This document shows, one piece after another, positions 1,262-17,908 of a DNA stretch of 20,000 nucleotides. The stretch comes from an uncultured virus (IMG/VR IMGVR_UViG_3300046746_000620) (Duplodnaviria > Heunggongvirae > Uroviricota > Caudoviricetes). The translations under genes were made by a program, and so were the position numbers. Below the pieces are notes generated by a model. That model searched no databases and was not told where the DNA came from. It saw only the letters and a program-made list of their open reading frames with translations. Location of the stretch: the IMG/VR virus record IMGVR_UViG_3300046746_000620, positions 54,523 through 74,522 of that record. The stretch is one strand, 5' to 3'. The first letter of the stretch is position 1. Each line of letters starts with the position of its first letter.

Positions 1262-1702
1262 TTAAATTATTTGTTGTATTGCTTCTTGTGATATTCCAGA
1301 TGGAGTATGAATTGTTTTTATACCAACTTCATTAGCATCGTCAATAATTGTTTGAAGATCATCTATTAATAATATGTTTTTATATTCACAATTAAACTTT
1401 TTTTTAGTTTCTTCTATGTGATATCTTTTAGATGGATAAGAGGGATGAATTACGATAATATCAAAAAATTTTTTTTCAAAGATATATGATAAATAATTTT
1501 TACAGATCTCTGCAGCTGGACTTGCTGAAGCTATTCCTACTTTATAACCTTTATTCTTTAAAGATTTGATTACATCTACAGCATTCGGCATCAACATGCT
1601 TTCAACTTGTTGTTTTGATAAAATCTTTGAAGCCCAACTGTCAAATCTCCATATAGTTCTATCTAGATCTATTAATACTATTTTTATTTCTTTTGTGTTC
1701 AT
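1262..1702 (-). CDS. HAD-superfamily phosphatase (MDP-1-like)
   Basis: Motif I IDLDRTIW, motif II IASAS, motif III K (PSK), motif IV LLIDD; 146 aa, no obvious cap domain. Confidence 0.8.
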   Translation of the reverse strand: MNTKEIKIVLIDLDRTIWRFDSWASKILSKQQVESMLMPNAVDVIKSLKNKGYKVGIASASPAAEICKNYLSYIFEKKFFDIIVIHPSYPSKRYHIEETKKKFNCEYKNILLIDDLQTIIDDANEVGIKTIHTPSGISQEAIQQII

Positions 1703-6687: not shown

Positions 6688-6903
6688 GTCTATCAAAGAT
6701 ATACTATATGATACACAATTAAAATTCAAGTGTCGCCGATTTTTTTTTGAAAAATGTTATTCACAAAAGATCGAAGCTTTGATTTTTTGAGAAAAACCAC
6801 CCCCCCGCCAAATCTGTCAAGCTTAATCTGTAAAAAATTCAAAAAACGGGGGACATCCTTAAATTTTTAAAAATAAAAATAATAGTTTTTTTTTTGAATT
6901 AGT

Positions 6904-6932
6904 TTGACGTGAAGCTCTTTTTTGTTTAGTTT
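6904..6932 (+). promoter_or_regulatory. Sigma70-type promoter, probably leaderless (ATG 6939)
   Basis: TTGACG-N17-TAGTTT-N6-ATG. Confidence 0.75.
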
Positions 6933-6938
6933 GTATAT

Positions 6939-7151
6939 ATGAACATTACTAAAGGATTAAAAGTCGGAAGCCTTTACCACTCAAAGGTTAATAATAAAGT
7001 TGTTCGTCTCGTGTCTATCGACAGAGTCGGATCTCAACGGATCGCAACGATCAAGCATCATGCGCAAAATCATCTTTTCGAGTCAGAGGTTTTTATCTCT
7101 GACCTAATCAAGGCAACTGCCGATCAAGTCAAGGCTTACTTTAAAAGGTAA
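6939..7151 (+). CDS. Hypothetical early protein (70 aa)
   Basis: ORF starts 6 nt after the predicted -10 box. Confidence 0.75.
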   Translation: MNITKGLKVGSLYHSKVNNKVVRLVSIDRVGSQRIATIKHHAQNHLFESEVFISDLIKATADQVKAYFKR

Positions 7152-7187
7152 GTCTTGACACAACACACAAGGAAAGGTAAAAAAGAA

Positions 7188-7358
7188 ATGATTAAAATAC
7201 TACGAAACCCTAACTTTTCAAATTGGTTTGACATTCGCCTTTTTGGGGAACTAATAGACAACGCAAAATCACAAGCAAAAGCCTTGCAAATTGCAAAACA
7301 AATAAAACGAAACAATCCACATTTTCAAATCGTAACAGAGGGAGAAACAAATGCGTAA
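7188..7358 (+). CDS. Hypothetical protein (56 aa), paralog of 19812..20000
   Basis: ATG 7188 after purine-rich AAGGAAAGG; MIKILRNPNFSNWFDIRLFGELID... Confidence 0.75.
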   Translation: MIKILRNPNFSNWFDIRLFGELIDNAKSQAKALQIAKQIKRNNPHFQIVTEGETNA

Positions 7359-7647
7359 AGTAACAGAAAGAATTAAACAAGCCTTTGAGCAAGGCACTTC
7401 TCTAAAGGTCGGCAACACAAGAACAGACGGCACAAGCGTCTTCTTGCATGGTAACGAGATAATCAAACGAGATGAAAGCGGGCTTGTAATGGCTACGCTT
7501 GCAGGATGGAACACGCCAACCACAAGGGAAAGAATCAACGGCATAACAGGATTGGGCATCTACCAAAAGAACTTTGCTCCTATGCTAAACGGGCAAGAAA
7601 TTGACGAATACGATTGGGTGACGCATACAGAGGAGGTGTATGTATGA
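7351..7647 (+). CDS. Phage hypothetical protein (LHGNxI...GWxTxTTRERIN type)
   Basis: GGGAG SD-like sequence; motif pattern recalled from other phage early proteins, function unknown. Confidence 0.8.
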   Translation: MRKVTERIKQAFEQGTSLKVGNTRTDGTSVFLHGNEIIKRDESGLVMATLAGWNTPTTRERINGITGLGIYQKNFAPMLNGQEIDEYDWVTHTEEVYV

Positions 7648-7694
7648 CTTGCATAATCCTCTTATCCATTGCATTATACTTCTACTCTAAATAA
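7644..7694 (+). CDS. Putative 16 aa hydrophobic micropeptide MTCIILLSIALYFYSK
   Basis: AGGAGG at 7631-7636, 7 nt before the ATG; ATGA overlap with the upstream gene; similar to 10711..10767. Confidence 0.55.
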   Translation: MTCIILLSIALYFYSK

Positions 7695-7705
7695 AATAAG
7701 CCGCC

Positions 7706-7778
7706 TAAGTGACTGAATAACAAGCACTTAGAGCGCGGCGCTGCCGCGTGACCTAAGTACTTAATAAACAACAACTTA
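7706..7778. repeat. Bipartite palindromic element, copy 1
   Basis: TAAGTgactgaataacaagcACTTA-gagcgcggcGCTGCcgcgtgacc-TAAGTacttaataaacaacaACTTA. Confidence 0.95.
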
Positions 7779-7859
7779 CGAAAGTCTCGTACAGAAATCA
7801 TGCCAATTCATGTAATAGAATAATGCAATAAAATAGTTGCCAAATAATTCAAAATAAAT

Positions 7860-7888
7860 TTGACTTTAGTTAATAGATGCTTTAGTTT
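7860..7888 (+). promoter_or_regulatory. Sigma70-type promoter, probably leaderless (ATG 7895)
   Basis: TTGACT-N17-TAGTTT-N6-ATG. Confidence 0.75.
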
Positions 7889-7894
7889 ATATAT

Positions 7895-8245
7895 ATGAAA
7901 TCAATATACAATACAGACACAGAAGAATTTACTTTTAACTTTTTAATGAGCATCGAGGGTGCAACTTATAGAATCGAAGCCGTAGCTTGTCAAGATGACA
8001 TCTTGCTGAGCGAACAATATCGTCCCGAATATATCGACGTTTATATGGCTAAATTAATAAATGACAAAACAGGTGAATTTATAGAATCAAGCATCTATAA
8101 AAACACAGATCTTTTAAAGGTTGTGAGCGACAAGCTCACAGAAAGGCTAATTACAAATGCAAGCAAAACTTGGTTTGTTACTGATGCGCCAAGGCTTTTC
8201 CGTGAGCAATTCGACACTTGCCTTGAAATAATGTTTCAAAAATAA
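7895..8245 (+). CDS. Hypothetical protein (116 aa)
   Basis: ORF track; has its own promoter. Confidence 0.8.
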   Translation: MKSIYNTDTEEFTFNFLMSIEGATYRIEAVACQDDILLSEQYRPEYIDVYMAKLINDKTGEFIESSIYKNTDLLKVVSDKLTERLITNASKTWFVTDAPRLFREQFDTCLEIMFQK

Positions 8246-8257
8246 TTCAAAATAAAT

Positions 8258-8286
8258 TTGACAAAAGTTAAAAAATAGACGATAGT
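8258..8286 (+). promoter_or_regulatory. Possible sigma70-type promoter for 8292
   Basis: TTGACA-N17-GATAGT-N5-ATG; the 23 bp ending within the -35 box are identical to those of the 7860 promoter. Confidence 0.55.
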
Positions 8287-8291
8287 AAGGT

Positions 8292-8627
8292 ATGACAGAA
8301 ATAAAAATAGAATTCGACGAAGTAAACAATGAAGAGTTTTCCGCCTATGCTGAAGTAGGCGAGGAATACTACGAACTGCAAGGCACAACATGGACAGATG
8401 AGCAAGAGTCTCTTTATGGAGATCAAGTCTCAGCCGTTCACTTAGTGGCTTACTTTGATACTCTTGAAAGCGTGAAGCGCTTCGATGGCAACGGCAAACA
8501 AATTGATTCAATGAACTTGGATCTTATCAAAGCAATTAAAAAAGAACTTAATAAAAACATGGATGAAGAGATAGGATCACACTCTTGCCGTGTTGACTAC
8601 TCGCCACAATACTACGACCTAATCTAA
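8292..8627 (+). CDS. Acidic hypothetical protein (111 aa)
   Basis: ORF track; strongly D/E-rich. Confidence 0.8.
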   Translation: MTEIKIEFDEVNNEEFSAYAEVGEEYYELQGTTWTDEQESLYGDQVSAVHLVAYFDTLESVKRFDGNGKQIDSMNLDLIKAIKKELNKNMDEEIGSHSCRVDYSPQYYDLI

Positions 8628-8629
8628 TC

Positions 8630-8803
8630 ATGGAATACATAAAAAACACGATCAACAAATTAAGAACTCAAATCATGGCATTGAATAGCGAAAGAATCAA
8701 GGCAATGAAATTGAACAATAAAAAGAAGGCTTCAGACATTGAAGCTATACAAATAGAATTAGACAATCAAATAGCACGATTGGAAGGTCTCGCACACCGA
8801 TAA
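8630..8803 (+). CDS. Hypothetical coiled-coil protein (57 aa; MEYIKNTINKLRTQ...LEGLAHR)
   Basis: Hand-translated, below the ORF-track cutoff; fills the gap between 8627 and element 2. Confidence 0.7.
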   Translation: MEYIKNTINKLRTQIMALNSERIKAMKLNNKKKASDIEAIQIELDNQIARLEGLAHR

Positions 8804-8814
8804 GATCAGCCCCC

Positions 8815-8887
8815 TAAGTTACTGATAACCAAGCACTTAGGTCAGGGCGCCGCGCTGCGCTGTAAGTGCTTAATAAGCAACTACTTA
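8815..8887. repeat. Bipartite palindromic element, copy 2
   Basis: TAAGTtactgataaccaagcACTTA-ggtcagggcGCCGCgctgcgctg-TAAGTgcttaataagcaactACTTA. Confidence 0.95.
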
Positions 8888-9007
8888 TATAACTCCATAA
8901 ATCTAGTTTAAAATTGCATAATCCCGCCACCACTAAAAAGTTGCACTATTTGACTATTTGGTATTTAAATAAAAAAACAAAAAAAATGAAAATAAATCCG
9001 TATTTGC

Positions 9008-9036
9008 TTGCAAAACACGCACTACTAGTTTACCTT
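9008..9036 (+). promoter_or_regulatory. Sigma70-type promoter, probably leaderless (ATG 9043)
   Basis: TTGCAA-N17-TACCTT-N6-ATG. Confidence 0.7.
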
Positions 9037-9042
9037 GTTTTT

Positions 9043-9276
9043 ATGGATAAGATCAGAATCAATCATGTAATCGGAGTCAATGGACTTCTTGAATTTTCAC
9101 GCGACGAAAAGTCGGGCATATCCCTGTGGGAAGATGTTGCAAATAATGTTTGGACTTGGGATCAAATAGTCGAAGCATCTAAAGATGTAACAAATAAAGA
9201 AATCATCGACGCCATGAAAGTAGATGGACACATCACTGAGCCATGCGTAAATGATCTTTTAAATATACTAAAATAA
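9043..9276 (+). CDS. Hypothetical protein (77 aa, MDKIRINHV...)
   Basis: In frame with track ORF 8914..9276; start moved to the ATG that fits the promoter geometry. Confidence 0.7.
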   Translation: MDKIRINHVIGVNGLLEFSRDEKSGISLWEDVANNVWTWDQIVEASKDVTNKEIIDAMKVDGHITEPCVNDLLNILK

Positions 9277-9279
9277 AAT

Positions 9280-9308
9280 TTGCAATTATATCATAACTCG
9301 TTTACCTT
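9280..9308 (+). promoter_or_regulatory. Sigma70-type promoter, probably leaderless (ATG 9315)
   Basis: TTGCAA-N17-TACCTT-N6-ATG. Confidence 0.7.
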
Positions 9309-9314
9309 ATATAT

Positions 9315-9563
9315 ATGAAAGCTAATACAGACACCATCTCAATCGTTGACCTAATCGAAAACGAATCATATAAAAATCACCAAGCTTACAACTTAGCAAA
9401 AGCTCTCTTGGACATTGCGGTTCAAGCAAGATCCATAAAAAACACAGTTTCAGAAAACATTTCAGGCGATGGAAAAGTGTTCAATGAAAATGTTGATAAA
9501 TGGATGACCGAAATCAACAACATTGCAAACAATGTGGTAAGGGAAGAAATGTTAACCAAATAA
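9315..9563 (+). CDS. Hypothetical protein (82 aa)
   Basis: ORF track; has its own promoter. Confidence 0.8.
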   Translation: MKANTDTISIVDLIENESYKNHQAYNLAKALLDIAVQARSIKNTVSENISGDGKVFNENVDKWMTEINNIANNVVREEMLTK

Positions 9564-9577
9564 GGAGGGAATAAAAT

Positions 9578-9766
9578 ATGAATAAACAACAAATACTAGA
9601 AAAAATTTCCGCCCTTCACGAAAAACTCAAGAACTCTGTTCTTGCTCCTGCTGATGCCGTTGCTATCCGCAATGAAATCGGAGAGCTTGAGGATAAGGTC
9701 TCTCTTCTCGACTTTTACAACGACGAAGGGGATTATGATTATGGCTACCACTCCCAATGGGAGTAA
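9578..9766 (+). CDS. Hypothetical protein (62 aa)
   Basis: AAGGAGG SD upstream; its stop TAA is the first 3 nt of element 3. Confidence 0.8.
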   Translation: MNKQQILEKISALHEKLKNSVLAPADAVAIRNEIGELEDKVSLLDFYNDEGDYDYGYHSQWE

Positions 9767-9835
9767 GCCTTTGATAATCAACTACTTACATCGCCGCGCA
9801 GCCAAGCACCTAAGTGCTTGGCAGTCAACAACTTA
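9764..9835. repeat. Bipartite palindromic element, copy 3 (between convergent genes)
   Basis: TAAGCctttgataatcaactACTTA-catcgccgcGCAGCcaagcacc-TAAGTgcttggcagtcaacaACTTA. Confidence 0.95.
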
Positions 9836-10057
9836 CTCTTCTAGTAGCCATGCATCGAGAGCTTCTGTGTCGATGTCTGGGTCATCATATTGAGCCCCAT
9901 CAGGTGTGGACTCGAATCCATATTCAACTTTAAGATGTTCAACTAAATCTTTATAATATGCAAACCTGCGAGATAAAAAATAAAGATGTTCATCATTCCC
10001 TAACCAAAGAGCAACATTCCAGGTCGCCCAGTTTTTCCAGCCGTTGTAAGTATCCAT
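9833..10057 (-). CDS. Phage hypothetical protein (YNGWxNxxTWNVALW type)
   Basis: N-terminal YNGWKNWATWNVALWLGNDE and a TPDG motif; its stop overlaps the end of element 3. Confidence 0.85.
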   Translation of the reverse strand: MDTYNGWKNWATWNVALWLGNDEHLYFLSRRFAYYKDLVEHLKVEYGFESTPDGAQYDDPDIDTEALDAWLLEE

Positions 10058-10060
10058 AAT

Positions 10061-10246
10061 TTAATAAACGAGTTGTGAGTTAATAGCTAATTGATCAATC
10101 ATATCTTGAATATGTTCTTTTTCATTTTCTGCATTGATTACTAACTGCATCGAGTTAATACAACCTTGATCTGCGGCATCTGTCTCATTGTTAATAATCT
10201 GCTGAAGTTCGTTAATTCTGTTAAATAAATCTTTTAATGTTTCCAT
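10061..10246 (-). CDS. Hypothetical helical protein (61 aa)
   Basis: ORF track; has its own promoter. Confidence 0.75.
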   Translation of the reverse strand: METLKDLFNRINELQQIINNETDAADQGCINSMQLVINAENEKEHIQDMIDQLAINSQLVY

Positions 10247-10252
10247 GATAGT

Positions 10253-10281
10253 AAGATAATTAAAAATAGAAATAATTGCAA
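10253..10281 (-). promoter_or_regulatory. Sigma70-type promoter, probably leaderless (ATG 10246)
   Basis: TTGCAA-N17-TATCTT-N6-ATG. Confidence 0.75.
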
Positions 10282-10289
10282 GAAAAAAA

Positions 10290-10496
10290 TTAAAATTTTA
10301 ATGCTTTTAGCGATGTGTTTCTTTTTAACCATCTACGCAATGGGTGAAATGCTCTTGCACTAAAATGAGCGAGATACTGCTCTCCGTTTTTGGCAAGGAT
10401 CATATGCCCGCTTGCAGTTTCACGGATCTTTTCGATTTCAGGGCATTTCCGTAATTGTTTTAACACTTTGCGAGTTCCACTTTCTGAATGTTTCAT
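10290..10496 (-). CDS. Basic hypothetical protein (68 aa), possibly HicA-like
   Basis: Helix, then ASGH, beta strands and a C-terminal helix; size fits the HicA fold. Confidence 0.65.
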   Translation of the reverse strand: MKHSESGTRKVLKQLRKCPEIEKIRETASGHMILAKNGEQYLAHFSARAFHPLRRWLKRNTSLKALKF

Positions 10497-10502
10497 AAGT
10501 AC

Positions 10503-10531
10503 AAGCTAAAGCAAAAAATAAAAATACACAA
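10503..10531 (-). promoter_or_regulatory. Sigma70-type promoter, probably leaderless (ATG 10496)
   Basis: TTGTGT-N17-TAGCTT-N6-ATG; 26 bp from element 4. Confidence 0.65.
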
Positions 10532-10557
10532 GAAAAAAGTGAATAAAAATGCTTTCG

Positions 10558-10630
10558 TAAGTCTTTGATTATAAAGCTTTTAAGGGTTAACGCAGCCGAC
10601 TGCCCTAAGTGCTTGATAATCAACTACTTA
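10558..10630. repeat. Bipartite palindromic element, copy 4
   Basis: TAAGTctttgattataaagcTTTTA-agggttaacGCAGCcgactgccc-TAAGTgcttgataatcaactACTTA. Confidence 0.95.
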
Positions 10631-10710
10631 GGACAGCCACACATGCAGACTACGACAACTAATACGACTAAAAAATTATTTGCGAGTTTTCGTATTTGCT
10701 ATTTTTAGTT

Positions 10711-10767
10711 TTAATCTTTTGTATATATATATAATAGTATTGACAAGATAATAATTATTGGAATCAT
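10711..10767 (-). CDS. Putative 18 aa hydrophobic micropeptide MIPIIIILSILLYIYTKD
   Basis: ATGA overlap with 10764..10841; similar to 7644..7694. Confidence 0.5.
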   Translation of the reverse strand: MIPIIIILSILLYIYTKD

Positions 10768-10841
10768 TCTTCTTTTAAATCTTGCCACATTAAGTAAAAA
10801 ACAAAAAGCCAAGGAGTGAAAAATAATAATTCAACTATCAT
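10764..10841 (-). CDS. Putative 25 aa membrane peptide MIVELLFFTPWLFVFYLMWQDLKEE
   Basis: Overlaps the end of 10831..11094 with AAAGGA upstream; hydrophobic core and charged tail. Confidence 0.5.
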   Translation of the reverse strand: MIVELLFFTPWLFVFYLMWQDLKEE

Positions 10842-11094
10842 AATATATTCCTTTCATTTCATCGGATAATCCGATTTCTTCATCTTCCTCATCAACATCT
10901 TCAGCGACATCAGTAAGTAAGAATTGAGTTTCATCTGTAATGTCATCTCTCTCGACATCTTTTAATCCATGCTCGACAACTAATTGTTCTGCTTGTAAGT
11001 CTGCGACTAATTCTAATACTGAGGAATCAGTTGGCAAACCTTTGGATTCACGATGTGCGTTAGCGATAACTGCGAGTCTTTGTTCTTCTGTCAT
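10831..11094 (-). CDS. Highly acidic hypothetical protein (87 aa)
   Basis: ORF track; DVAEDVDEEDEE tract; has its own promoter. Confidence 0.8.
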   Translation of the reverse strand: MTEEQRLAVIANAHRESKGLPTDSSVLELVADLQAEQLVVEHGLKDVERDDITDETQFLLTDVAEDVDEEDEEIGLSDEMKGIYYDS

Positions 11095-11100
11095 AGTAAT

Positions 11101-11129
11101 AATATAGTTTAGTTTTGTTTAGTCGTCAA
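11101..11129 (-). promoter_or_regulatory. Sigma70-type promoter, probably leaderless (ATG 11094)
   Basis: TTGACG-N17-TATATT-N6-ATG. Confidence 0.8.
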
Positions 11130-11514
11130 GCCCTAATTCTCTTCTAAATTCTGCTTTGTCTTCAATTAGCTCATCAACCCAAACGCTTCCTTCGACTTGA
11201 GCTTTTGCCATTAGGATAGATACTTGAGCAGGAGATTGCCAACCGACAACATCATCAGAAGGAGAAAGAGGAATCATGCCGTTTTTATCGTAGATTGCAA
11301 CTTCGTACAAACCTTCTTTTAAGCTTCCATATAATCCTTTATAGTCATCTTTACCTGCAATAACAGAAATTTCTAGTCCGTTGCCAAAGTCAAGTTTTGC
11401 ATGGACTGCTTCATCATGATAACGATGTGGTTTAAAATCAAGATCGTCAAAGTCTAGCATTGAAGGTTTTGGTTGAAATTGTGAGATTGAGTTTGGTATG
11501 TCGTAGTTAATCAT
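11119..11514 (-). CDS. Phage hypothetical protein (FGNGLEISV...GLYEVAI...DDVVGW type)
   Basis: ORF track; motif pattern recalled from other phage early genes. Confidence 0.85.
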   Translation of the reverse strand: MINYDIPNSISQFQPKPSMLDFDDLDFKPHRYHDEAVHAKLDFGNGLEISVIAGKDDYKGLYGSLKEGLYEVAIYDKNGMIPLSPSDDVVGWQSPAQVSILMAKAQVEGSVWVDELIEDKAEFRRELGLDD

Positions 11515-11520
11515 ATAAAC

Positions 11521-11549
11521 ACATTAAACTCTTTTAACAATTAACGCAA
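11521..11549 (-). promoter_or_regulatory. Sigma70-type promoter, probably leaderless (ATG 11514)
   Basis: TTGCGT-N17-TAATGT-N6-ATG; 27 bp from element 5. Confidence 0.7.
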
Positions 11550-11576
11550 GAAAAAACTTAAATAAAAATGCTTTCG

Positions 11577-11648
11577 TAAGTCGTTAACTGTTAGGCAGTT
11601 AGCTTTGGCGGCAGCCAGCCACCTAAGTGATTGACTATAAAGGATTTA
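11577..11648. repeat. Bipartite palindromic element, copy 5
   Basis: TAAGTcgttaactgttaggcAGTTA-gctttggcgGCAGCcagccacc-TAAGTgattgactataaaggATTTA. Confidence 0.9.
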
Positions 11649-11649
11649 C

Positions 11650-11853
11650 CTATCTTAATACTGTTGTCAACTCATTTTGAAATTTTTTTGCTTCAACTAA
11701 ATCTTTTAAGTCAAAACTAATTGCAACAAGATTGTCGTTAATATTCTTCATTACCTTGACAAGGTCGTCCATGTTTGCATAACGTCTATGCTCTAACATC
11801 TCATCTGATAATCCGTCAATGGCTTGTTTAATTCCTTTTAATTCTTCTTTCAT
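11650..11853 (-). CDS. Hypothetical coiled-coil protein (67 aa)
   Basis: ORF track; stop lies 1 nt from element 5. Confidence 0.75.
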   Translation of the reverse strand: MKEELKGIKQAIDGLSDEMLEHRRYANMDDLVKVMKNINDNLVAISFDLKDLVEAKKFQNELTTVLR

Positions 11854-11854
11854 T

Positions 11855-12010
11855 TTAATGTTTACCTTTCTTTATAAAATTTTCTAAATAATATGCAACC
11901 CACTCAATAGCTTCATTTTGTTTTGATGCCTCCTCTTTCATTTCAGGATCGTCAATAACGTTTTGATTGGCTAGGTCTAATACAATTTCTAATGCTGTTG
12001 TGATATTCAT
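11855..12010 (-). CDS. Hypothetical protein (51 aa; MNITTALEIVLDLANQNVIDD...)
   Basis: Hand-translated; ATGA overlap with the upstream gene and fills the gap. Confidence 0.7.
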   Translation of the reverse strand: MNITTALEIVLDLANQNVIDDPEMKEEASKQNEAIEWVAYYLENFIKKGKH

Positions 12011-12420
12011 GATATATAAGCTGTTACTTTGTTGTGTGTTAATAAAACTTCGTCCGCATAGTACGCAAACCTTTCGGTGTCCTTCTCAACGAAAGTTTCA
12101 TACTTGTAGGGATTGTACGTTACCTCGACTTCCCTAGTGGCAACTTGTGGATTACGAGATACATTTTCTGCATCTTGAAGATACCCTTTGACAAAAGCAT
12201 GAACATTCTTACGCTTCTCTCGAAGAACTTTTTCTCTGCCCTTAATATCGACATGAAAATAGCAATCCCATAATCCAATAGCATGATCCTTTGGGATATG
12301 AGCTTTGACTAATCCATGTTGCTTAATGCTCCAACAATCTTTGTGAAGATTCTTGTAAACATAAACAGGGCGATTCTTTTTAATTCTATATCGTGGGTCT
12401 TGCTGGTTTCTTAGTATCAT
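12007..12420 (-). CDS. Phage hypothetical protein (VYxNLH...GREKVLREKRKNVHAFV...YNPY type)
   Basis: Motif pattern recalled from other phages; function unknown. Confidence 0.85.
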   Translation of the reverse strand: MILRNQQDPRYRIKKNRPVYVYKNLHKDCWSIKQHGLVKAHIPKDHAIGLWDCYFHVDIKGREKVLREKRKNVHAFVKGYLQDAENVSRNPQVATREVEVTYNPYKYETFVEKDTERFAYYADEVLLTHNKVTAYIS

Positions 12421-12426
12421 GTAGAC

Positions 12427-12455
12427 ATACTAAGCCATTTTTTTAATTATAGCAA
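12427..12455 (-). promoter_or_regulatory. Sigma70-type promoter, probably leaderless (ATG 12420)
   Basis: TTGCTA-N17-TAGTAT-N6-ATG; 27 bp from element 6. Confidence 0.75.
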
Positions 12456-12482
12456 GAAAAAAGTTTAGTAATTTTACTTACC

Positions 12483-12554
12483 TAAGTATCTTGTATTCAA
12501 GTACTTATGTTTTTGCGCAGCCGCCGCCACAAGTGCTTGATAATCAAGGCTTTA
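12483..12554. repeat. Bipartite palindromic element, copy 6
   Basis: TAAGTatcttgtattcaagtACTTA-tgtttttgcGCAGCcgccgcca-CAAGTgcttgataatcaaggCTTTA. Confidence 0.92.
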
Positions 12555-12731
12555 GTACCCTAACCACTCAAGAACTTTTTGGGCTGAGTACCCTTCCTTG
12601 TCACCCATGTCTTCAAAAAATTCAATAATTTCCTCACTGGAAGTAATGCCGTGCCTGGCTAATTCCTCTAAGGCACGATCTTGTGAAATGTCAATTCCTT
12701 GGGCTGAGTCAAAATAAGTTTCTTCATTCAT
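12552..12731 (-). CDS. Acidic hypothetical protein (59 aa; MNEETYFDSAQGIDIS...EWLGY)
   Basis: Hand-translated; its stop TAA is the outer end of element 6. Confidence 0.75.
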   Translation of the reverse strand: MNEETYFDSAQGIDISQDRALEELARHGITSSEEIIEFFEDMGDKEGYSAQKVLEWLGY

Positions 12732-12746
12732 GGCTTTAATTATAGA

Positions 12747-13472
12747 TTAATGAGCTAAATATGCAATACCTTTTTTGCATCCTTTGATAAAACATAAGTT
12801 GCAATTATGAGCTTTACAAGTTGCAAGAACCTTGCCGTCTTCGCCCTTAACATAAGTTGCGGGGCAAACAAAATGACCATCTTGCTCGGCTTGCTCTTTT
12901 GAGCTATAGACGGAAGTTCCCGCATCTAGACCATCGATTTGTGGAGCGGGTTCATCAACATACAAGGCACTTGGTTTTAAGCATACATTCTTTAAACTTG
13001 CGAGCTTGCGAAGTGAAGGTAATTGACTATCCCTTGCCCACTCACGAGTTGGAAACCAAAAGCGAATGGTGGGAAAGTTTTCGCAAATCTTAATCCACGC
13101 CTCAATATACTTTGGGGAAAACAAGTCGCCTGAATCATGAACGCGAAAAAGATCTGTGTTGACATTCTTTAAAACTTTTTTGTTGCCTTGCTTGTCAAAA
13201 TACTTTGCGGTAATTTGCTTGGATATCTCATTTACAAAAGTTTGCCCATTGTCTCGATGCAAAGACTTGGTGACAAAATTTGCCTTGTCTTGCAAACTTT
13301 GTTTAACATTGTTAAACATATAAAAACCTTTGCAAGCATAACAAGCATCACAAATAAACTTTTTTGCTTTGTCTTTGACTTTTGCCATAAGTTGAGCTGC
13401 TGGGCAATACTTGAAAGCGGGAATGTTAAAGCCTAAGCAAGGCATTTTAGAAGGATTTGATAGTAAGTTCAT
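12747..13472 (-). CDS. Gp88-like protein (mycobacteriophage gene 88 family; Cys-rich)
   Basis: SKMPCLGFNIPA..CP, ICDACYACKG.Y, FRVHDSGD, FWFPTRE and C-terminal CPA...CxxxxCxxC. Confidence 0.75.
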   Translation of the reverse strand: MNLLSNPSKMPCLGFNIPAFKYCPAAQLMAKVKDKAKKFICDACYACKGFYMFNNVKQSLQDKANFVTKSLHRDNGQTFVNEISKQITAKYFDKQGNKKVLKNVNTDLFRVHDSGDLFSPKYIEAWIKICENFPTIRFWFPTREWARDSQLPSLRKLASLKNVCLKPSALYVDEPAPQIDGLDAGTSVYSSKEQAEQDGHFVCPATYVKGEDGKVLATCKAHNCNLCFIKGCKKGIAYLAH

Positions 13473-13478
13473 AATAGT

Positions 13479-13507
13479 AAACTAAAATAATTTTAACAAT
13501 TATGCAA
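13479..13507 (-). promoter_or_regulatory. Sigma70-type promoter, probably leaderless (ATG 13472)
   Basis: TTGCAT-N17-TAGTTT-N6-ATG. Confidence 0.75.
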
Positions 13508-13700
13508 GCGAAAAAATAAGATCTTCAAAGAAATCTGGTTCTAAGCCGAATTCGCTGGTAAATGTCTCTTCCCATTCAAACGGATCTCCGCCCATTGCAA
13601 TGTCTTCAGACATTTCACGAAAAAAGGTTGCGGTTTGGTGAATAGCATCTTCACGGGAAAGCCCGTCACGCTCCATAAGTATCTTGATTATTCTTTTCAT
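13500..13700 (-). CDS. Phage hypothetical protein (ILMERDGLSREDA...FGLEPDF)
   Basis: ORF track; has its own promoter. Confidence 0.8.
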   Translation of the reverse strand: MKRIIKILMERDGLSREDAIHQTATFFREMSEDIAMGGDPFEWEETFTSEFGLEPDFFEDLIFSLA

Positions 13701-13706
13701 GATAAC

Positions 13707-13735
13707 AATATCTCACAAAAAATAATTTAACGCAA
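13707..13735 (-). promoter_or_regulatory. Sigma70-type promoter, probably leaderless (ATG 13700)
   Basis: TTGCGT-N17-GATATT-N6-ATG; 26 bp from element 7. Confidence 0.6.
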
Positions 13736-13761
13736 GAAAAAATGAATTAAAAATACATCCG

Positions 13762-13833
13762 TAAACCCTTGATGCTTAAGCAGTTAGCTCGCGCCGCAGC
13801 CGCTTCCATAAGTGCTTAATAATCAAATACTTG
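13762..13833. repeat. Bipartite palindromic element, copy 7
   Basis: TAAACccttgatgcttaagcAGTTA-gctcgcgccGCAGCcgcttcca-TAAGTgcttaataatcaaatACTTG. Confidence 0.9.
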
Positions 13834-13852
13834 TGAAACACTAAATCAACCC

Positions 13853-13880
13853 AAAAAAAAAGCCCCCCAATCGGGGGGCT
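13853..13880 (-). terminator. Rho-independent terminator after the DUF932 gene
   Basis: AGCCCCCC-aatc-GGGGGGCT 8 bp stem followed by a U8 run on the minus strand. Confidence 0.85.
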
Positions 13881-13903
13881 AAAACGAAACAACAAACCAA
13901 TAT

Positions 13904-14776
13904 TTAAACCTCTATCAATTCGCCCTCAGCAACTTCTATGTCAATAGTATTATCAACATGATTATCTATATCGAAATCGACATAACTATCGAGAACAGAA
14001 TGAAGAGCGTCTGAACGATTTGGCAAGGCAACTAAGTTACCTTTATAAATTTCAGTAAAAGCATTATAGAGAGAATTTACATTACGATCCTTAAATTCTA
14101 AATGGTCACTTGACTCCCATTGATCTGCCACATCAAGAATTTTTGACTTAGGTAAAGCCCCTGCACGAACTGCTTTGATGATTAAATCATGAGCAAGAAC
14201 ATTCCCGATAGAATGATTTTTATAAGCATTGATTCTTTCATCTTGTCCATGCCAAAAGCCAAACAATTTACCCAAAGCACGATTGATCATAAAATCAAGA
14301 TCGTTAAGTATGTTGCGAGTATGTCTACGAGCAAGTTTAATAGTGTTTGTGAAAATTAAATTATCGCAAACAAATGGAGCATCACCTGCGCAAAGTCCTG
14401 CAGGAAAAGTTTTGTCATGAGAATTGCGAACTCCTACGACACAACCACGATCTGATTCGTCACGATCAGGATGATCAACAGAGAATAGACCAAAGTAATG
14501 TTGGTTATCTCTAGCGAGAGAATGTAATTCGTCTTGAATAGTAAACCCTCTCTTGACAAGAGAATCTTTAGTACGAACAACAAGCTCGTCATGAGCAATG
14601 GGCTGATGAGAAACGGCAAGCTCACCTGTTCTCTTGTTTGGTTTGTTGCGCATTGTAGGTAATGGAGTTGGTACTGCTTGTACTTGATCAAAATCTACGA
14701 TTGTGCGATTGCCTCCACAAATGTGTAAATCTACGGATTTGCGAGGAGCGGTATTAGTGTTTTCTTCTGTATTCAT
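13904..14776 (-). CDS. DUF932-family protein
   Basis: HQPIAH, GVRNSHDKTF, FVCDNLIF, RRHT and SLYNAFTE motifs. Confidence 0.8.
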   Translation of the reverse strand: MNTEENTNTAPRKSVDLHICGGNRTIVDFDQVQAVPTPLPTMRNKPNKRTGELAVSHQPIAHDELVVRTKDSLVKRGFTIQDELHSLARDNQHYFGLFSVDHPDRDESDRGCVVGVRNSHDKTFPAGLCAGDAPFVCDNLIFTNTIKLARRHTRNILNDLDFMINRALGKLFGFWHGQDERINAYKNHSIGNVLAHDLIIKAVRAGALPKSKILDVADQWESSDHLEFKDRNVNSLYNAFTEIYKGNLVALPNRSDALHSVLDSYVDFDIDNHVDNTIDIEVAEGELIEV

Positions 14777-14782
14777 GATAGT

Positions 14783-14811
14783 AATATAATAGTTTTAATG
14801 TTTTTTGTCAA
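14783..14811 (-). promoter_or_regulatory. Sigma70-type promoter, probably leaderless (ATG 14776)
   Basis: TTGACA-N17-TATATT-N6-ATG (near consensus). Confidence 0.85.
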
Positions 14812-14814
14812 GAG

Positions 14815-15048
14815 TTAATTTTTAGAATATTGGTTTTCTTCTGAGGTTAGCATTTCAAATGCATAAGCTTTTTTAGCTATATCTCGTAAGGCTAAACCAA
14901 CCCAACTAATTTCATCTAAATCTTCTACGGAAAGATTTTTAGCATGAGGTGTTACTAGAATATCCCAAATGGATTTCATGCAATCTTTGTTTAGCTCTAA
15001 AGAGTTGAAATCGGGCAACTCATCCACATTTTGTTTAATTACATACAT
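14815..15048 (-). CDS. Hypothetical protein (77 aa)
   Basis: AAGGAG SD upstream; ORF track. Confidence 0.75.
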   Translation of the reverse strand: MYVIKQNVDELPDFNSLELNKDCMKSIWDILVTPHAKNLSVEDLDEISWVGLALRDIAKKAYAFEMLTSEENQYSKN

Positions 15049-15163
15049 AGTTTAGATTCTCCTTGTGTTTTAGTTTTCTGTGTATCGTTTTAGTTTTGAC
15101 TTTGTGAGGTCTTGATTTAGTGAAAAGAATGGTTTTTCTGATCTTAATGTCTCTCGCTTTCAT
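15035..15163 (-). CDS. Very basic 42 aa protein MKARDIKIRKTILFTKSRPHKVKTKTIHRKLKHKENLNYVCN
   Basis: Hand-translated; ATG lies exactly 6 nt after the predicted -10 box. Confidence 0.7.
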   Translation of the reverse strand: MKARDIKIRKTILFTKSRPHKVKTKTIHRKLKHKENLNYVCN

Positions 15164-15169
15164 GTAAAC

Positions 15170-15198
15170 ATACTAAGCTAATTTTTTAATTATAGCAA
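15170..15198 (-). promoter_or_regulatory. Sigma70-type promoter, probably leaderless (ATG 15163)
   Basis: TTGCTA-N17-TAGTAT-N6-ATG; near copy of the 12427 promoter; 28 bp from element 8. Confidence 0.75.
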
Positions 15199-15226
15199 GA
15201 AAAATAACAAATAATTTTAACTTTTT

Positions 15227-15298
15227 TAATTCCTTGTGTATCAAGCACTTAGAGCGCGCGGCAGCCAGCCACATAAGTGACTGATAATCAAAAGGTTA
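15227..15298. repeat. Bipartite palindromic element, copy 8
   Basis: TAATTccttgtgtatcaagcACTTA-gagcgcgcgGCAGCcagccaca-TAAGTgactgataatcaaaaGGTTA. Confidence 0.92.
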
Positions 15299-15457
15299 TG
15301 ATCTACCTGAATAAAGCTTATATAATAGATTGTCGTGCATCGCTCTTTTTTCCTTATAATCTTTCGATTGGTCCCCCGCTTGCTCTCTAATGGCTAGCAT
15401 GTGACCTAATTTTCTTACAATTTGCTTTAAGGTTAAGACTTCTTTATTTTTTTTCAT
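15296..15457 (-). CDS. Hypothetical protein (53 aa; MKKNKEVLTLKQIVRK...SGRS)
   Basis: Hand-translated; its stop TAA is the outer end of element 8. Confidence 0.7.
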   Translation of the reverse strand: MKKNKEVLTLKQIVRKLGHMLAIREQAGDQSKDYKEKRAMHDNLLYKLYSGRS

Positions 15458-15459
15458 AA

Positions 15460-15690
15460 TTAGATTTTATTAAGAGATATAATTTGGTCGTATCGAAAGG
15501 ATCGTATGCCGTCCCTATTTAGACAAAAAGATCTAAAGCCAACAACCCCCCTTCCTTCTTGTTGATTGCCAAACTCATTTTCGTGCTGAGGTTTGGTTAT
15601 TGTGTACATTTCAGTTCTGCCGTCTTTAGTCTGATAAACAACTTGATATAACGGATTAAACCAACGATAAATTTTAGTCAATAATTTCAT
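15460..15690 (-). CDS. Small WYL-like domain protein
   Basis: YQVVYQTKDGRTE...FCLNRDGIRSFRYDQIISL resembles the WYL signature C..R...RxFRxDRI; start moved to MKLLTK (GAGAGG SD). Confidence 0.55.
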   Translation of the reverse strand: MKLLTKIYRWFNPLYQVVYQTKDGRTEMYTITKPQHENEFGNQQEGRGVVGFRSFCLNRDGIRSFRYDQIISLNKI

Positions 15691-15919
15691 CTTCGACATC
15701 CTCTCTTGCGGGGTTTTGGTTGTAGTGATTGTAAGCATCGCAAGCTGAATCTGCCGACTCGAAACTCACGGATAGAATATCTCTTGGAATATCGTACGGA
15801 AACCAAGGTGTTTCTGATTCTTCAAAAAATAATTCCCATTGCTCAGTATCTTCGTTGTATTCAGGTAAATCTAGCGGACTGCCGATGCAGGTTGCTTCTA
15901 TGTAATTATTCATTTTCAT
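15674..15919 (-). CDS. Acidic hypothetical protein (about 81 aa)
   Basis: ORF track; overlaps both neighbours. Confidence 0.75.
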   Translation of the reverse strand: MKMNNYIEATCIGSPLDLPEYNEDTEQWELFFEESETPWFPYDIPRDILSVSFESADSACDAYNHYNQNPAREDVEDEIID

Positions 15920-16118
15920 TATCCTCTATGTTATAGACTCCGAAGTGAGACGCAAGCTCTAAAATCATTTTATCTTTGTTAAAATAACGATAGGCAAAAG
16001 AAAGTAAATCCTCTTGTTGTTTTCTCGTATGCCCATCTCTAAGTTCATCATAAATCTCAAAGATATTCATGTTCCAATTCCAACTCTCTACTCTCGCTTC
16101 TACTTGTGATGCTGTCAT
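15906..16118 (-). CDS. Hypothetical protein (70 aa)
   Basis: ORF track; TAATG stop/start coupling with the upstream gene. Confidence 0.75.
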   Translation of the reverse strand: MTASQVEARVESWNWNMNIFEIYDELRDGHTRKQQEDLLSFAYRYFNKDKMILELASHFGVYNIEDNENE

Positions 16119-16333
16119 TATACTGCCCTTTCGTTTACTTGTTCTAACATAAGTTTAAATTGATCAAAAACTTTTTGCTTGCTACCTTTGAGACCAAACT
16201 CTTGTTTGATGATAGAATAGCAAGATCTGCCTCGACTCATTTGCATACCTAAAGTCTCAAGCCTTAAACCTCTGAGAAGAGTTTTGTAGCGAAACATTTC
16301 GATTTGTTCGGGTGTGTCTAATACTGCTGTCAT
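16118..16333 (-). CDS. Phage hypothetical protein (71 aa)
   Basis: AAGGA SD; GLRLETLGMQMSRGRS...IKQEFGLKGSKQKV. Confidence 0.8.
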   Translation of the reverse strand: MTAVLDTPEQIEMFRYKTLLRGLRLETLGMQMSRGRSCYSIIKQEFGLKGSKQKVFDQFKLMLEQVNERAV

Positions 16334-16346
16334 AATTTTCCTTGTG

Positions 16347-16571
16347 TTATAGTTGTGCTGATTGAAAAGATGATTCTATTCTACGTTCATCTTGTAATGC
16401 TGTCAAGTCCCTAATGATATCTTCTAAAGATTCATCCTCCGATTGGAATGAGCTACCCTTCGGGAACTTGTCAGGGTGGCGTTCGCATTGGTCGAGACAA
16501 ACTGTTGACATGGGATCCGACCATGCGAGGTTGCCTCTAACGATATCCATAATTGATTCTGATAATGTCAT
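16347..16571 (-). CDS. Hypothetical protein (74 aa, MTLSESIMDIV...)
   Basis: C-terminal part of track ORF 16347..16745; ATGA overlap with 16568..16735 supports the later start. Confidence 0.7.
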   Translation of the reverse strand: MTLSESIMDIVRGNLAWSDPMSTVCLDQCERHPDKFPKGSSFQSEDESLEDIIRDLTALQDERRIESSFQSAQL

Positions 16572-16735
16572 TGTTTTGCCCTTTCGTTTTGGTCGTCTAC
16601 AATCTTTGCGAGGCGAAGTAATTCTTGGGTTACTTCTGCTTTTGCGGTGTTGTTTGCTTGTGGGCTTTTCAACACCTCGACCATAACAGGAACGAGTGCT
16701 GACCATGTTGGTGTGATATCTATTGTTTCTTGCAT
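16568..16735 (-). CDS. Hypothetical protein (55 aa; MQETIDITPTWSALVPVMVEVL...)
   Basis: Hand-translated; ATG 6 nt after the predicted -10 box. Confidence 0.75.
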   Translation of the reverse strand: MQETIDITPTWSALVPVMVEVLKSPQANNTAKAEVTQELLRLAKIVDDQNERAKQ

Positions 16736-16741
16736 ATAAAC

Positions 16742-16770
16742 ACACTAAGGGAATTTTTAGTTGCTGTCAA
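16742..16770 (-). promoter_or_regulatory. Sigma70-type promoter, probably leaderless (ATG 16735)
   Basis: TTGACA-N17-TAGTGT-N6-ATG; 26 bp from element 9. Confidence 0.8.
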
Positions 16771-16796
16771 ATAAAAAGAAAATAAAAATGCTTTTG

Positions 16797-16869
16797 TAAG
16801 TTGTTGAATTTTAAGCAGTTAGGGTTTATCGCAGCGCTCCGCTTTAAGTGCTTGACTATCAACACTTTA
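16797..16869. repeat. Bipartite palindromic element, copy 9
   Basis: TAAGTtgttgaattttaagcAGTTA-gggtttatcGCAGCgctccgctt-TAAGTgcttgactatcaacaCTTTA. Confidence 0.92.
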
Positions 16870-16943
16870 TACAATCACCTTGTTCCTAACATTACTTAAT
16901 AATTCTTCATAATTTTTATTATATTTATATTATTTGTTATTTA

Positions 16944-17159
16944 TTATTTGTTATTATTTATACTAATGTTATTTATTATATATCCAGGACTGGGTAGTAA
17001 TTTATTATTTTGGTAATACATATTATCCCATGTACATTCTATTTGATATGCGTCAAGATACCAAGGTATTAACCAATGGTAAGCAAGAAAGAATGCAAAA
17101 TATATAAAAATAAACATAAAAAAATAATTTATTATTTTAAATGAGAATTTAAGAATCAT
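16944..17159 (-). CDS. Putative small membrane protein (71 aa)
   Basis: Hydrophobic YFFMFIFIYFAFFLAYHWLIPW; ATG at 17159 is in frame with the track ORF. Confidence 0.5.
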   Translation of the reverse strand: MILKFSFKIINYFFMFIFIYFAFFLAYHWLIPWYLDAYQIECTWDNMYYQNNKLLPSPGYIINNISINNNK

Positions 17160-17214
17160 AATCCATAAGTAATTTAAAACCAAGAACGATAGACATTATT
17201 ATCACTATTTCCAT
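17149..17214 (-). CDS. Putative 21 aa hydrophobic micropeptide MEIVIIMSIVLGFKLLMDYDS
   Basis: Hand-translated; fills the gap and overlaps the next start. Confidence 0.4.
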   Translation of the reverse strand: MEIVIIMSIVLGFKLLMDYDS

Positions 17215-17234
17215 ATTATATATTGTTATTATTG

Positions 17235-17489
17235 TTATTTGGCTATAGCAAAAACTGTTCTTAAGAGATCCATCTCTCGACCCCTGAAGAAAACATTACG
17301 ACAGTAATCGATATCGTTTTTTTCTACTTCAGTGATGCGAGCAGCTGCCCTCCAAGCTTCGATAACCTCTCTCTCCATGGCTCCCCACTTAATAACTACT
17401 TTAGTGCAGGGAAAGTGCTCTGCGAGCTCAGTTAACTGTTTTTTGTTCATATAACCATATGATGATAGAATTTCTTTTATTGTTTCCAT
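17235..17489 (-). CDS. Hypothetical protein (84 aa)
   Basis: ORF track; has its own promoter. Confidence 0.8.
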   Translation of the reverse strand: METIKEILSSYGYMNKKQLTELAEHFPCTKVVIKWGAMEREVIEAWRAAARITEVEKNDIDYCRNVFFRGREMDLLRTVFAIAK

Positions 17490-17495
17490 AATAAT

Positions 17496-17524
17496 ACTCT
17501 AGTATAAAATATTAATATGGTCAA
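17496..17524 (-). promoter_or_regulatory. Sigma70-type promoter, probably leaderless (ATG 17489)
   Basis: TTGACC-N17-TAGAGT-N6-ATG. Confidence 0.7.
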
Positions 17525-17526
17525 AC

Positions 17527-17565
17527 AAAAAAGCCCCCCTCGATCATCCATGGATCGAGGGGGGC
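17527..17565 (-). terminator. Strong rho-independent terminator after the ncRNA
   Basis: Perfect 13 bp stem GCCCCCCTCGATC/GATCGAGGGGGGC, 7 nt loop, U6 on the minus strand. Confidence 0.9.
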
Positions 17566-17582
17566 GAGTGTTCAGAGGAAAT

Positions 17583-17794
17583 TGGTGTGGGGAGGGATTA
17601 CTGTATACCCTCAAGTTTTCGGCGTGAACATCAGTTCATGGTGTACCTACTTCCAACCACAAATTAGACATGGTATTTGTCATCGGCTCATTCGATTGAA
17701 CTCTACCGCCCCACCACAGGGAATTTGCATACCTTAACCCGCTCACGACAGGTTTATTCGGTCACCCACAGGAAGGATTATAAGCCCTTCCAAA
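17583..17794 (-). ncRNA. Structured ncRNA, probably manA RNA motif-like
   Basis: GC-enriched stretch with no track ORF. Minus strand has a GGAAGG/CCUUCC hairpin, GUGACCGAAUA, GUUAAGGUAUGC, UUGUGGU, GAGGGUAUACAGUAAUCCCUC hairpin and a 3' CCCACACCA that can pair with 5' UGUGGG. These resemble my recollection of the manA motif; not searched. Confidence 0.65.
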
Positions 17795-17805
17795 GTGATA
17801 AAAAA

Positions 17806-17879: not shown

Positions 17880-17908
17880 ATAATACTAAAAAAATTACCT
17901 TTTGTCAA
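17880..17908 (-). promoter_or_regulatory. Sigma70-type promoter for the ncRNA
   Basis: TTGACA-N17-TATTAT. Confidence 0.75.

Follow-up and report, generated by a model that had tools for sequence, protein, structure and literature searches.

The window analysed here is a stretch of DNA of 20,000 nucleotides, positions 54,523 to 74,522 of record IMGVR_UViG_3300046746_000620, from an uncultured virus of the class Caudoviricetes. Between positions 7706 and 16869, its genes are separated by nine copies of an intergenic element that consists of two 25-nt boxes and a GC-rich spacer of 22-23 nt between them. All nine positions given by the initial annotation were confirmed, as were the box and spacer lengths and the GCNGC motif at spacer positions 10-14, which was found in 9/9 copies. 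The copies are listed below; the core is the conserved centre of the spacer, and the promoter module is a conserved segment found next to part of the elements.

7706-7778, no strand assigned: copy 1, box, GC-rich spacer and box, between the plus-strand genes 7351-7647 and 7895-8245, with no standard promoter module
8815-8887, no strand assigned: copy 2, between plus-strand genes, with no standard promoter module
9764-9836, no strand assigned: copy 3, between the convergent genes 9578-9766 (+) and 9833-10057 (-), both of which stop in the TAA of an outer box end
10558-10630, minus strand: copy 4, upstream of a promoter module and the gene 10290-10496 (-)
11577-11649, minus strand: copy 5, chimeric in comparison with a relative and switching no more than about 3 nt from the core centre
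12483-12555, minus strand: copy 6
13762-13834, minus strand: copy 7, with a canonical intrinsic terminator, 13880-13861 (-), just upstream in the direction of transcription
15227-15299, minus strand: copy 8
16797-16869, minus strand: copy 9

The element is confined to this array. In a scan of the 74.5 kb record with the box consensus, 18 boxes scored 14-18 out of 18, all of them within 7706-16869, and just three sites elsewhere reached 14-15; weaker matches elsewhere were at the level of base-shuffled controls (10-22 hits at a score of at least 13, 20 shuffles). The 74.5 kb record (G000) is a fragment of a viral genome of 205,857 bp (G001), and a profile of 80 copies detected no site in this whole genome beyond the same nine at E<=10. 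The statement of the initial annotation that all copies lie between genes holds, with the qualification that the outer TAA of a box is often the stop codon of the flanking gene; its term 'early region' is a presumption. One ORF (open reading frame) flagged across copy 3 was judged spurious; it overlaps the ends of two convergent genes, one of which encodes a conserved DUF7249 protein.

The distribution of the element was evaluated in viral and cellular genomes. A degenerate DNA pattern search of viral contigs returned 58 stretches on 28 contigs, 13 of which carried single pattern hits with no profile hit and were set aside as chance matches. The profile built from the nine copies identified 125 sites on 15 uncultured viral contigs plus the window, corresponding to 80 distinct copies once duplicates were removed. 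Element length is 73-77 bp across this family; similarity between copies is only about 65-80%, but their length and register are strictly maintained. Five genomes, whole or to the limits of their records (~505 kb in total), were compared, and each contains one array of 9-11 copies within about 9-12 kb. They represent one lineage, with syntenic packaging and structural genes at 55-80% amino-acid identity. In 185,579 bacterial and archaeal species-representative genomes, no true copy was found with two patterns that cover 14/80 and 25/80 of the known copies; the strict pattern gave no hit, and the loose pattern gave 74 single hits, all partial, with scores of at most 19 bits compared with 46-66 bits for true copies. 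Three of the hits, in OCS116, represent one conserved stretch resembling coding sequence and are not element copies. Among cultured phages, megablast of 12 kb and blastn of one unit gave only a chance match of 21 nt. Furthermore, the Rfam covariance models showed no element match in window positions 6500-17800 at E<=1, and a keyword literature search returned no description of the element, so that its lack of correspondence to a described repeat or Rfam family still stands. The family is phage-only and restricted to one phage lineage.

This distribution bears on the idea that the element is a selfish miniature mobile repeat, similar to MITEs (miniature inverted-repeat transposable elements) or REPINs, that has spread within the region. 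The element is short and intergenic, has terminal inverted TAAGT...ACTTA sequences and occurs in many copies, as such a repeat would. However, divergent copies with strict length and register are not the pattern of such a repeat, nor is confinement to a single 9-12 kb array per genome with no copy elsewhere in 206 kb. Moreover, orthologous copies persist across diverged phages, no Y1 transposase was found in the five genomes, and none of the bacterial genomes searched yielded a copy. A mobile repeat of this kind therefore appears very far-fetched.

The elements were found to delimit gene cassettes that occur in different orders in related phages. Contig 3300048556_000716 carries the same blocks as the window in another order, and the blocks of homology start and end on elements. 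Each of the five arrays was written out as a series of gene-family and element symbols. The blocks [P K K J O], [I H], [G U N], [F. M], [E D] and [C T] retained their content and orientation, and the order of the blocks differed in every one of the five genomes. The gene pair (ab ac) is a separate cassette in one genome; in a second genome it is part of another block. Adjacency was conserved in 107/162 comparisons (66%) within blocks compared with 17/99 (17%) across an element (odds ratio 9.4), the comparisons not being independent since the genomes are related, and orientation was kept in 32/33 shared families. As synteny across the elements is not conserved, the proposal that they separate cassettes survived the alignment of relatives, which could have refuted it.

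The array orders were further supported by metagenomic assemblies. For each order, two or more independent assemblies agreed and gave identical spacings; copies 1-2 and copies 7-9 are also spanned by contigs from other samples. All four metagenome and RNA runs were available as contigs, not raw reads. One metagenome variant joint places the element of copy 4 and its promoter ahead of the gene that in the window comes after copy 8. Joints that run backward, for example 15163->10526, are equally compatible with circles and with rearranged genomes. Many variant joints are weakly anchored and were given little weight; those with sides of 20-23 nt (6893->16951, 9950->16914, 10302->16913 and 15220->17104) were too weakly anchored to use.

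The array trades accessory genes that are widely common to phages. Four of its genes, 12007-12420 (-), 12747-13472 (-), 7351-7647 (+) and 9833-10057 (-), belong to families known only from other phages, and L5 gp82-like, GP88, Kyanoviridae Gp96 and DUF7249 are the families represented among them. Many other proteins of the array and its flanks have no known family. In two seawater DNA runs, the stretch 8966-9326 (gene 8914-9276) had a summed contig depth about 100-fold higher than neighbouring bins (868 and 784 vs. ~7-15), an excess suggesting that other abundant genomes share it.

The points at which homology changes were mapped in 21 element pairs that share one flank. Although the search extended over +-130 nt, no best switch point was more than 42 nt from the core, and base by base the switch points were located at the core, at the borders between spacer arm and box, or at the outer box edges; in some pairs a box and its flank are shared but the spacer differs. 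A single fixed crossover at the core was not supported as a rule, as the switch points are spread, but the core could be a preferred crossover point. A border about 3 nt or less from the core was observed in three events: the chimeric copy 5; an indel between two phages that are 93-97% identical; and copy 3, in two comparisons plus one variant contig joint, 9563->9801, with a side of 59 nt. In the two indels with a core border, the other border is not at an element. A six-frame search of the five genomes detected no tyrosine recombinase (PF00589), serine recombinase (PF00239) or Y1 transposase (PF01797), while positive controls were found (for PF00589, 14/14 controls and 0/5 genomes), and the window proteins include no tyrosine recombinase. 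Genes of the 206 kb genome include a RecA-like ORF and a PD-(D/E)XK nuclease. The simplest account of the switch points would be homologous or homeologous exchange, together with gene conversion, among direct repeats of a unit of ~135 bp that comprises the element and its promoter.

These data also bear on whether the elements are true site-specific recombination sites, in which an unrecognised recombinase binds the boxes, perhaps with bending by a protein of the IHF (integration host factor) type, and exchanges strands at GGCNGCC, as in integrons. Two inverted pairs of binding sites around a conserved core do resemble recombinase sites, blocks travel as units with their orientation kept, and the three core-border events, together with the 10/21 switch points (not independent) that lie within 12 nt of the core, would fit a preferred point of exchange; the many proteins of no known family in and around the array leave room for such an enzyme. 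However, none of the known recombinase or transposase types searched for is encoded in the five genomes, the remaining switch points are at arm/box borders or outer box edges, and the two core-border indels have their other border away from elements. In addition, a gap of 3 bp between half-sites and a distance of 22-23 bp between boxes are unlike the core sites of known recombinases, and we know of none that matches this geometry. Site-specific recombination is thus rated as improbable. Its more explicit phage-borne form, in which boxes bent by an IHF-type protein and an unrecognised recombinase or nuclease acting at GGCNGCC would allow promoter-equipped cassettes to be excised and re-inserted, is rated equally low; the scatter of switch points would then reflect later gene conversion between copies.

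To distinguish a DNA motif from a hairpin, pairing was evaluated in the 80 copies with the 3' column of each pair shuffled among copies as the control. A hairpin within box 1 was paired at 68.2% compared with 68.0% in the control (z of means +0.3), a hairpin within box 2 at 67.2% compared with 69.5% (z of means -3.2), and the pairing of box 1 with box 2 was 66.4% compared with 68.7% (z of means -4.0). These controls rule out each box as its own hairpin as well as a long hairpin between the two boxes. Since no box pairing exceeds the shuffled control, the palindromy stems from a conserved half-site, roughly TAAGTGCTTGA, that occurs four times in each element. Conservation is strongest in the inner two half-sites, and a few positions do not vary at all. 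The palindromic character described by the initial annotation therefore holds for the box consensus, but positions 6-7/19-20 are unpaired and pairing in individual copies is no commoner than in the column-shuffled control. The boxes are conserved DNA motifs, not hairpins.

A similar result was obtained for the spacer, in which the GCNGC motif could be widened to a GGCNGCC core, present in 60/80 copies when centred on the spacer. A central GC palindrome was present in 19/70 copies compared with 19.3 (standard deviation 3.2) when the arms were swapped between copies. This rules out a maintained stem and indicates that the GGCNGCC region is also a sequence motif. Mainly, the element consists of three dyad-symmetric DNA motifs about 24 bp apart, namely a 25-bp box, the GGCNGCC core in its GC-rich spacer and a second 25-bp box, which are most simply read as candidate protein-binding sites. 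The earlier suggestion that the boxes are sites for two protein dimers fits the lack of covariation, and the binding itself is a prediction from the sequence.

The elements might instead work at the RNA level on the upstream cassette, by terminating or attenuating its transcription or by serving as a processing site or a 3' stabiliser, in the manner of the stem-loop in the PeSLs (promoter-early stem-loops) of T4-type phages or of the RNase III sites that lie between the early genes of T7. Their location at the 3' ends of genes, where they often touch the stop codon, and also between convergent genes would suit such a role. The sequence can fold, with energies of -17 to -34 kcal/mol per 93 nt, and a spacer arm complementary to the variable bases of the adjoining half-box was enriched (27/70 copies vs. 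16.8, standard deviation 2.1, with swapped arms). Among the eight contig pieces listed from the RNA library, one crosses an element and two end 7 and 22 nt short of one. However, this RNA run is in contig form only and may contain DNA, and bins with no RNA contig cover (9688-10048 and 11493-12214) are uninformative. Covariation was not detected under any box pairing model, and 28/70 copies, of which the related ones are not independent, have no stem of at least six pairs in the spacer region. Folding showed no consistent strand preference (the sense strand was more stable in 3/6 window copies), no U-tract follows directly after the element stem, and Rfam gave no match. Moreover, a textbook intrinsic terminator is located directly upstream both of copy 7 and of the homologous copies in relatives, where a second terminator would be redundant, which argues that the element itself is not a terminator. 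Taken together, an RNA-level role appears unlikely.

The position of the element relative to the flanking genes is highly regular. The stop codon of the upstream ORF is most often at -35/-36 from the core, which is the TAA of the first box (12/41 ORF ends), and both convergent genes at copy 3 stop in box TAAs. In the main direction of transcription, the next ATG is 55-61 nt past the element in most tandem cases. The segment after the element is conserved and contains an AT-rich stretch, a T-run ending in CTTG, about 20 nt, and a TAnTnT-type box with the ATG 5-8 nt further on, and no Shine-Dalgarno sequence was found in this segment before the ATG. It reads as a predicted sigma70-like promoter with an almost leaderless start. 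Assignment to the Bacteroidota type (-33/-7) was dropped, as the spacing fits a sigma70-type -35/-10 promoter equally well. A profile of this promoter module gave 25 hits in the five records, 24 of which were beside an element and always on its downstream side. The modules in the window are as follows, with approximate limits:

10494-10557, minus strand: promoter module after copy 4
11512-11576, minus strand: promoter module after copy 5
12418-12482, minus strand: promoter module after copy 6
13698-13761, minus strand: promoter module after copy 7
15161-15226, minus strand: promoter module after copy 8
16733-16796, minus strand: promoter module after copy 9

Overall, 24/49 elements have the standard module beside them, and those that lack it are mostly in the opposite-strand part of the array or at convergent genes. 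A second conserved, predicted promoter type is used in those places, as seen in the window on the plus strand at 6895-6944, 7851-7900 and 9271-9320, at plus-strand genes. It comprises a TTGAC(T)-type -35 box, 17 nt, and a TAGTTT-type -10 box with the ATG 6 nt on, a predicted arrangement that again implies leaderless mRNAs.

Dyads that are conserved in sequence and keep a fixed register to an array-specific promoter type could also be operators of a phage-encoded regulator that switches the whole cassette set, with recombination as a side effect. Dispersed operators are known, such as the stoperators of mycobacteriophage L5 and the C1 operators of P1. Confinement of the family to one phage lineage is consistent with such a regulator, and in all five genomes the array is flanked by small conserved proteins with no assigned function (families A and B). 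However, family searches revealed no recognisable DNA-binding domain in any array protein, and the sole conserved protein with such a domain is a borderline sigma-like protein that nothing ties to the boxes. In addition, the element is upstream of the -35 region with no promoter overlap, and half of the elements have no standard promoter beside them. We regard the operator explanation as decidedly unlikely.

The gene for the sigma-like protein is located 2 kb away from the array, at window positions 4323-5039 (-), and is conserved in all five phages. The protein has weakly sigma-2-like and sigma-4-like ends with four invariant cysteines (C91, C94, C112 and C124) between them, and its score is borderline (24.4 bits vs. 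a cut-off of 25.7). A PDB profile search of this protein gave nothing below E 0.2, and its AlphaFold model, with a mean predicted local distance difference test score (pLDDT) of 57, was too poor to search with. A separate Sigma70_r2 protein is encoded at G001 L068:9502-10026.

The boxes were also compared with the sites of known DNA-bending proteins. The IHF consensus is WATCAANNNNTTR, a string in use for IHF in at least part of the literature, and the right half of each box, as well as the left half on the other strand, fits it. An exact match was found in 76/309 half-boxes and a match with at most one mismatch in 198/309, whereas the background in the same genome was 12 exact matches and 207 with at most one mismatch per 119,976 positions (1e-4 and 1.7e-3 per position). 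Moreover, the invariant box columns coincide with the CAA and TT of the consensus. This resemblance, a lead only, makes a host DNA-bending protein of the IHF/HU type the leading candidate for binding the boxes. None of the five phage records has an HU/IHF match above the family cut-off, so an IHF-type protein would have to come from the host. A 70-aa ORF in the array of a relative, G002:C1:16137-16247 (+), gave a sub-threshold HU/IHF hit (14.9 bits vs. a cut-off of 22.4).

Based on the conservation of sequence, the fixed register and the permuted blocks, we propose that the element is a conserved boundary and regulatory repeat of a cassette array in a hyperplastic region, functionally analogous to the PeSLs (composite promoter/stem-loop units) of T4-type phages, and that it serves as a homology patch for shuffling, a reading that we hold to be about evenly balanced between right and wrong. 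The element would act as double-stranded DNA rather than as a hairpin. It begins at the stop codon of the upstream gene or just behind it and would be followed, in fixed register, by a sigma70-like promoter that starts an almost leaderless mRNA; we infer that the element may shape or insulate the DNA upstream of each cassette promoter. The ~135-bp unit, present as 9-11 direct repeats, would provide homology patches for general recombination by the phage, possibly with the RecA-like protein. Recombination between two copies would remove a block, by deletion or excision, and a further exchange involving a third copy would put it back. Such exchange would alter the order of the blocks while keeping their orientation and expression signals.

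Several observations weigh against this proposal. The enriched hairpin between spacer arm and half-box (27/70) means that some single-strand structure may exist. The standard promoter module is missing from 25/49 elements, and some elements are located between convergent genes, where an upstream promoter site has no obvious use. The clustering of switch points near the core and the three events with a border at the core would allow a preferred crossover. The IHF resemblance was spotted post hoc, after the motif had been seen, with a real look-elsewhere risk, and no HU/IHF match above the family cut-off accompanies it in the five phage records. The adjacency counts come from related genomes. 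Finally, variation also occurs inside blocks, away from elements, as in joint 11855->12005, where 160 letters are replaced.

The element was then compared with known systems. PeSLs are described as composite promoter/stem-loop units in the hyperplastic regions of T4-type phages, where they bound insertions, deletions and replacements and can release mini-circles (PMC2839356, PMC4122927). The element resembles a PeSL in being an intergenic composite: it extends from the stop codon of one gene to the ATG of the next and includes an AT-rich stretch and a predicted sigma70-like promoter. Similarly, it is located in a hyperplastic region of small genes with no assigned function, the breakpoints of relatives map to the units, and the conserved length of ~100 bp suffices for homologous exchange, which a dedicated recombinase may assist in both systems. 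Unlike a PeSL as described there, the element has no G-run/C-run stem-loop upstream but a triple-dyad motif of 73-77 bp with no covariation, it is followed by a nearly leaderless start with no Shine-Dalgarno sequence, it forms one array per genome and not many scattered units, and whole blocks change order. The phage lineage is also unrelated, with a terminase only ~22-26% identical to that of any cultured phage. The likeness to PeSLs drawn by the initial annotation was thus apt: the element works like a PeSL but with a distinct triple-dyad architecture, in a single array and in an unrelated lineage.

The other analogy of the initial annotation, a site-specific system of the integron/attC kind, was not upheld. 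What is conserved in integron attC sites is the fold of the single strand, not the sequence, and integrons have an adjacent tyrosine recombinase, IntI, and mostly promoterless cassettes behind one common promoter. The array resembles an integron in its same-orientation cassettes, its imperfectly palindromic sites in the range of 60-140 bp, and its order and content that vary between relatives. In contrast to attC, however, the element is conserved in sequence and not in structure (box 1 with box 2, z -4.0), no integrase is present (PF00589, 0/5 genomes and none in the window), the switch points are spread, many cassettes carry their own predicted promoter (24/49 elements), and cassettes often hold several genes.

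In the BIMEs (bacterial interspersed mosaic elements) of the RIP (RIB) type in E. coli, REP (repetitive extragenic palindromic) sequences are combined with an IHF site at the 3' ends of transcription units. The element is likewise a composite intergenic repeat at gene ends with a GC-rich palindrome and IHF-type sites, but the arrangement is inverted, with IHF-like boxes flanking a GC core. Unlike REP, BIME and REPIN sequences, it is phage-only, promoter-tied and limited to one array, with no dispersal over a bacterial chromosome and no associated RAYT (Y1) transposase (PF01797, 0/5 genomes). The stoperators of L5 are asymmetric 13-bp repressor sites spread over a temperate genome, and according to the linker idea of modular phage evolution, module borders should carry conserved sequences by which exchange is guided. 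The element shares with both that it is a short conserved intergenic site, repeated many times and oriented with transcription; unlike L5 stoperators, it is 73-77 bp long, symmetric and clustered, and has no known repressor. The element is neither an integron nor a host repeat of the REP/BIME type.

The source of the window is a long-tailed marine phage with a genome of ~206 kb, of which the array occupies ~9 kb, and its DNA was found in many seawater metagenomes. The two ends of the 74.5 kb record are joined in G001 by ~131 kb of further sequence, which includes genes for DNA polymerase III alpha, DnaB, RecA-like and ClpB-like proteins, a C5 DNA methylase, a QueF-like protein and many glycosyl- and sulfotransferases. 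A PhoH gene adjoins the array in every one of the five genomes. At ~145,000-168,800 of G001, about 25 tandem diverged paralogues of an 889-aa ORF were observed, with 72-75% nucleotide identity and no family match. The first copy is at 1507-4176 of the 74.5 kb record, and this repeat block probably caused the break of the record there. A giant ORF at 27058-37551 (-) of the same record encodes 3,497 aa, and its N-terminus matches tape-measure families (3e-45), an identity that would imply an extremely long tail. This match rules out an N4-like phage with hairpin promoters for a virion RNA polymerase, which the ORF had brought to mind. A second giant ORF, G001 L070:4853-13795 (-), encodes 2,980 aa with no Pfam match. 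The record G003 carries the IMG/VR label 'provirus', yet no integrase was found in its sequence. Within the window, a strong match to the manA RNA motif (RF01745; 88.2 bits vs. a gathering score of 55.2) is located at 17582-17791 (-), with a GT47-type glycosyltransferase gene, 17895-18587 (-), on one side and a strong intrinsic terminator, 17565-17533 (-), on the other.

Phages store and exchange small accessory genes in hyperplastic regions. Many of these genes probably serve host takeover or counter-defence, and how they move with no damage to the genome has been worked out for one group only, through the PeSLs of T4-type phages. The array described here indicates that an unrelated, uncultured marine lineage has come to an equivalent solution, in which the boundary element is different and far more elaborate. 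Its shuffling can be read with unusual ease, as whole blocks are permuted in every genome compared, and the linker-sequence idea of modular phage evolution thereby becomes directly testable in a second system. The profile of the element can be used to find such arrays in viromes, and the element itself provides a defined DNA site whose candidate binding protein, of the IHF type or new, can be sought.

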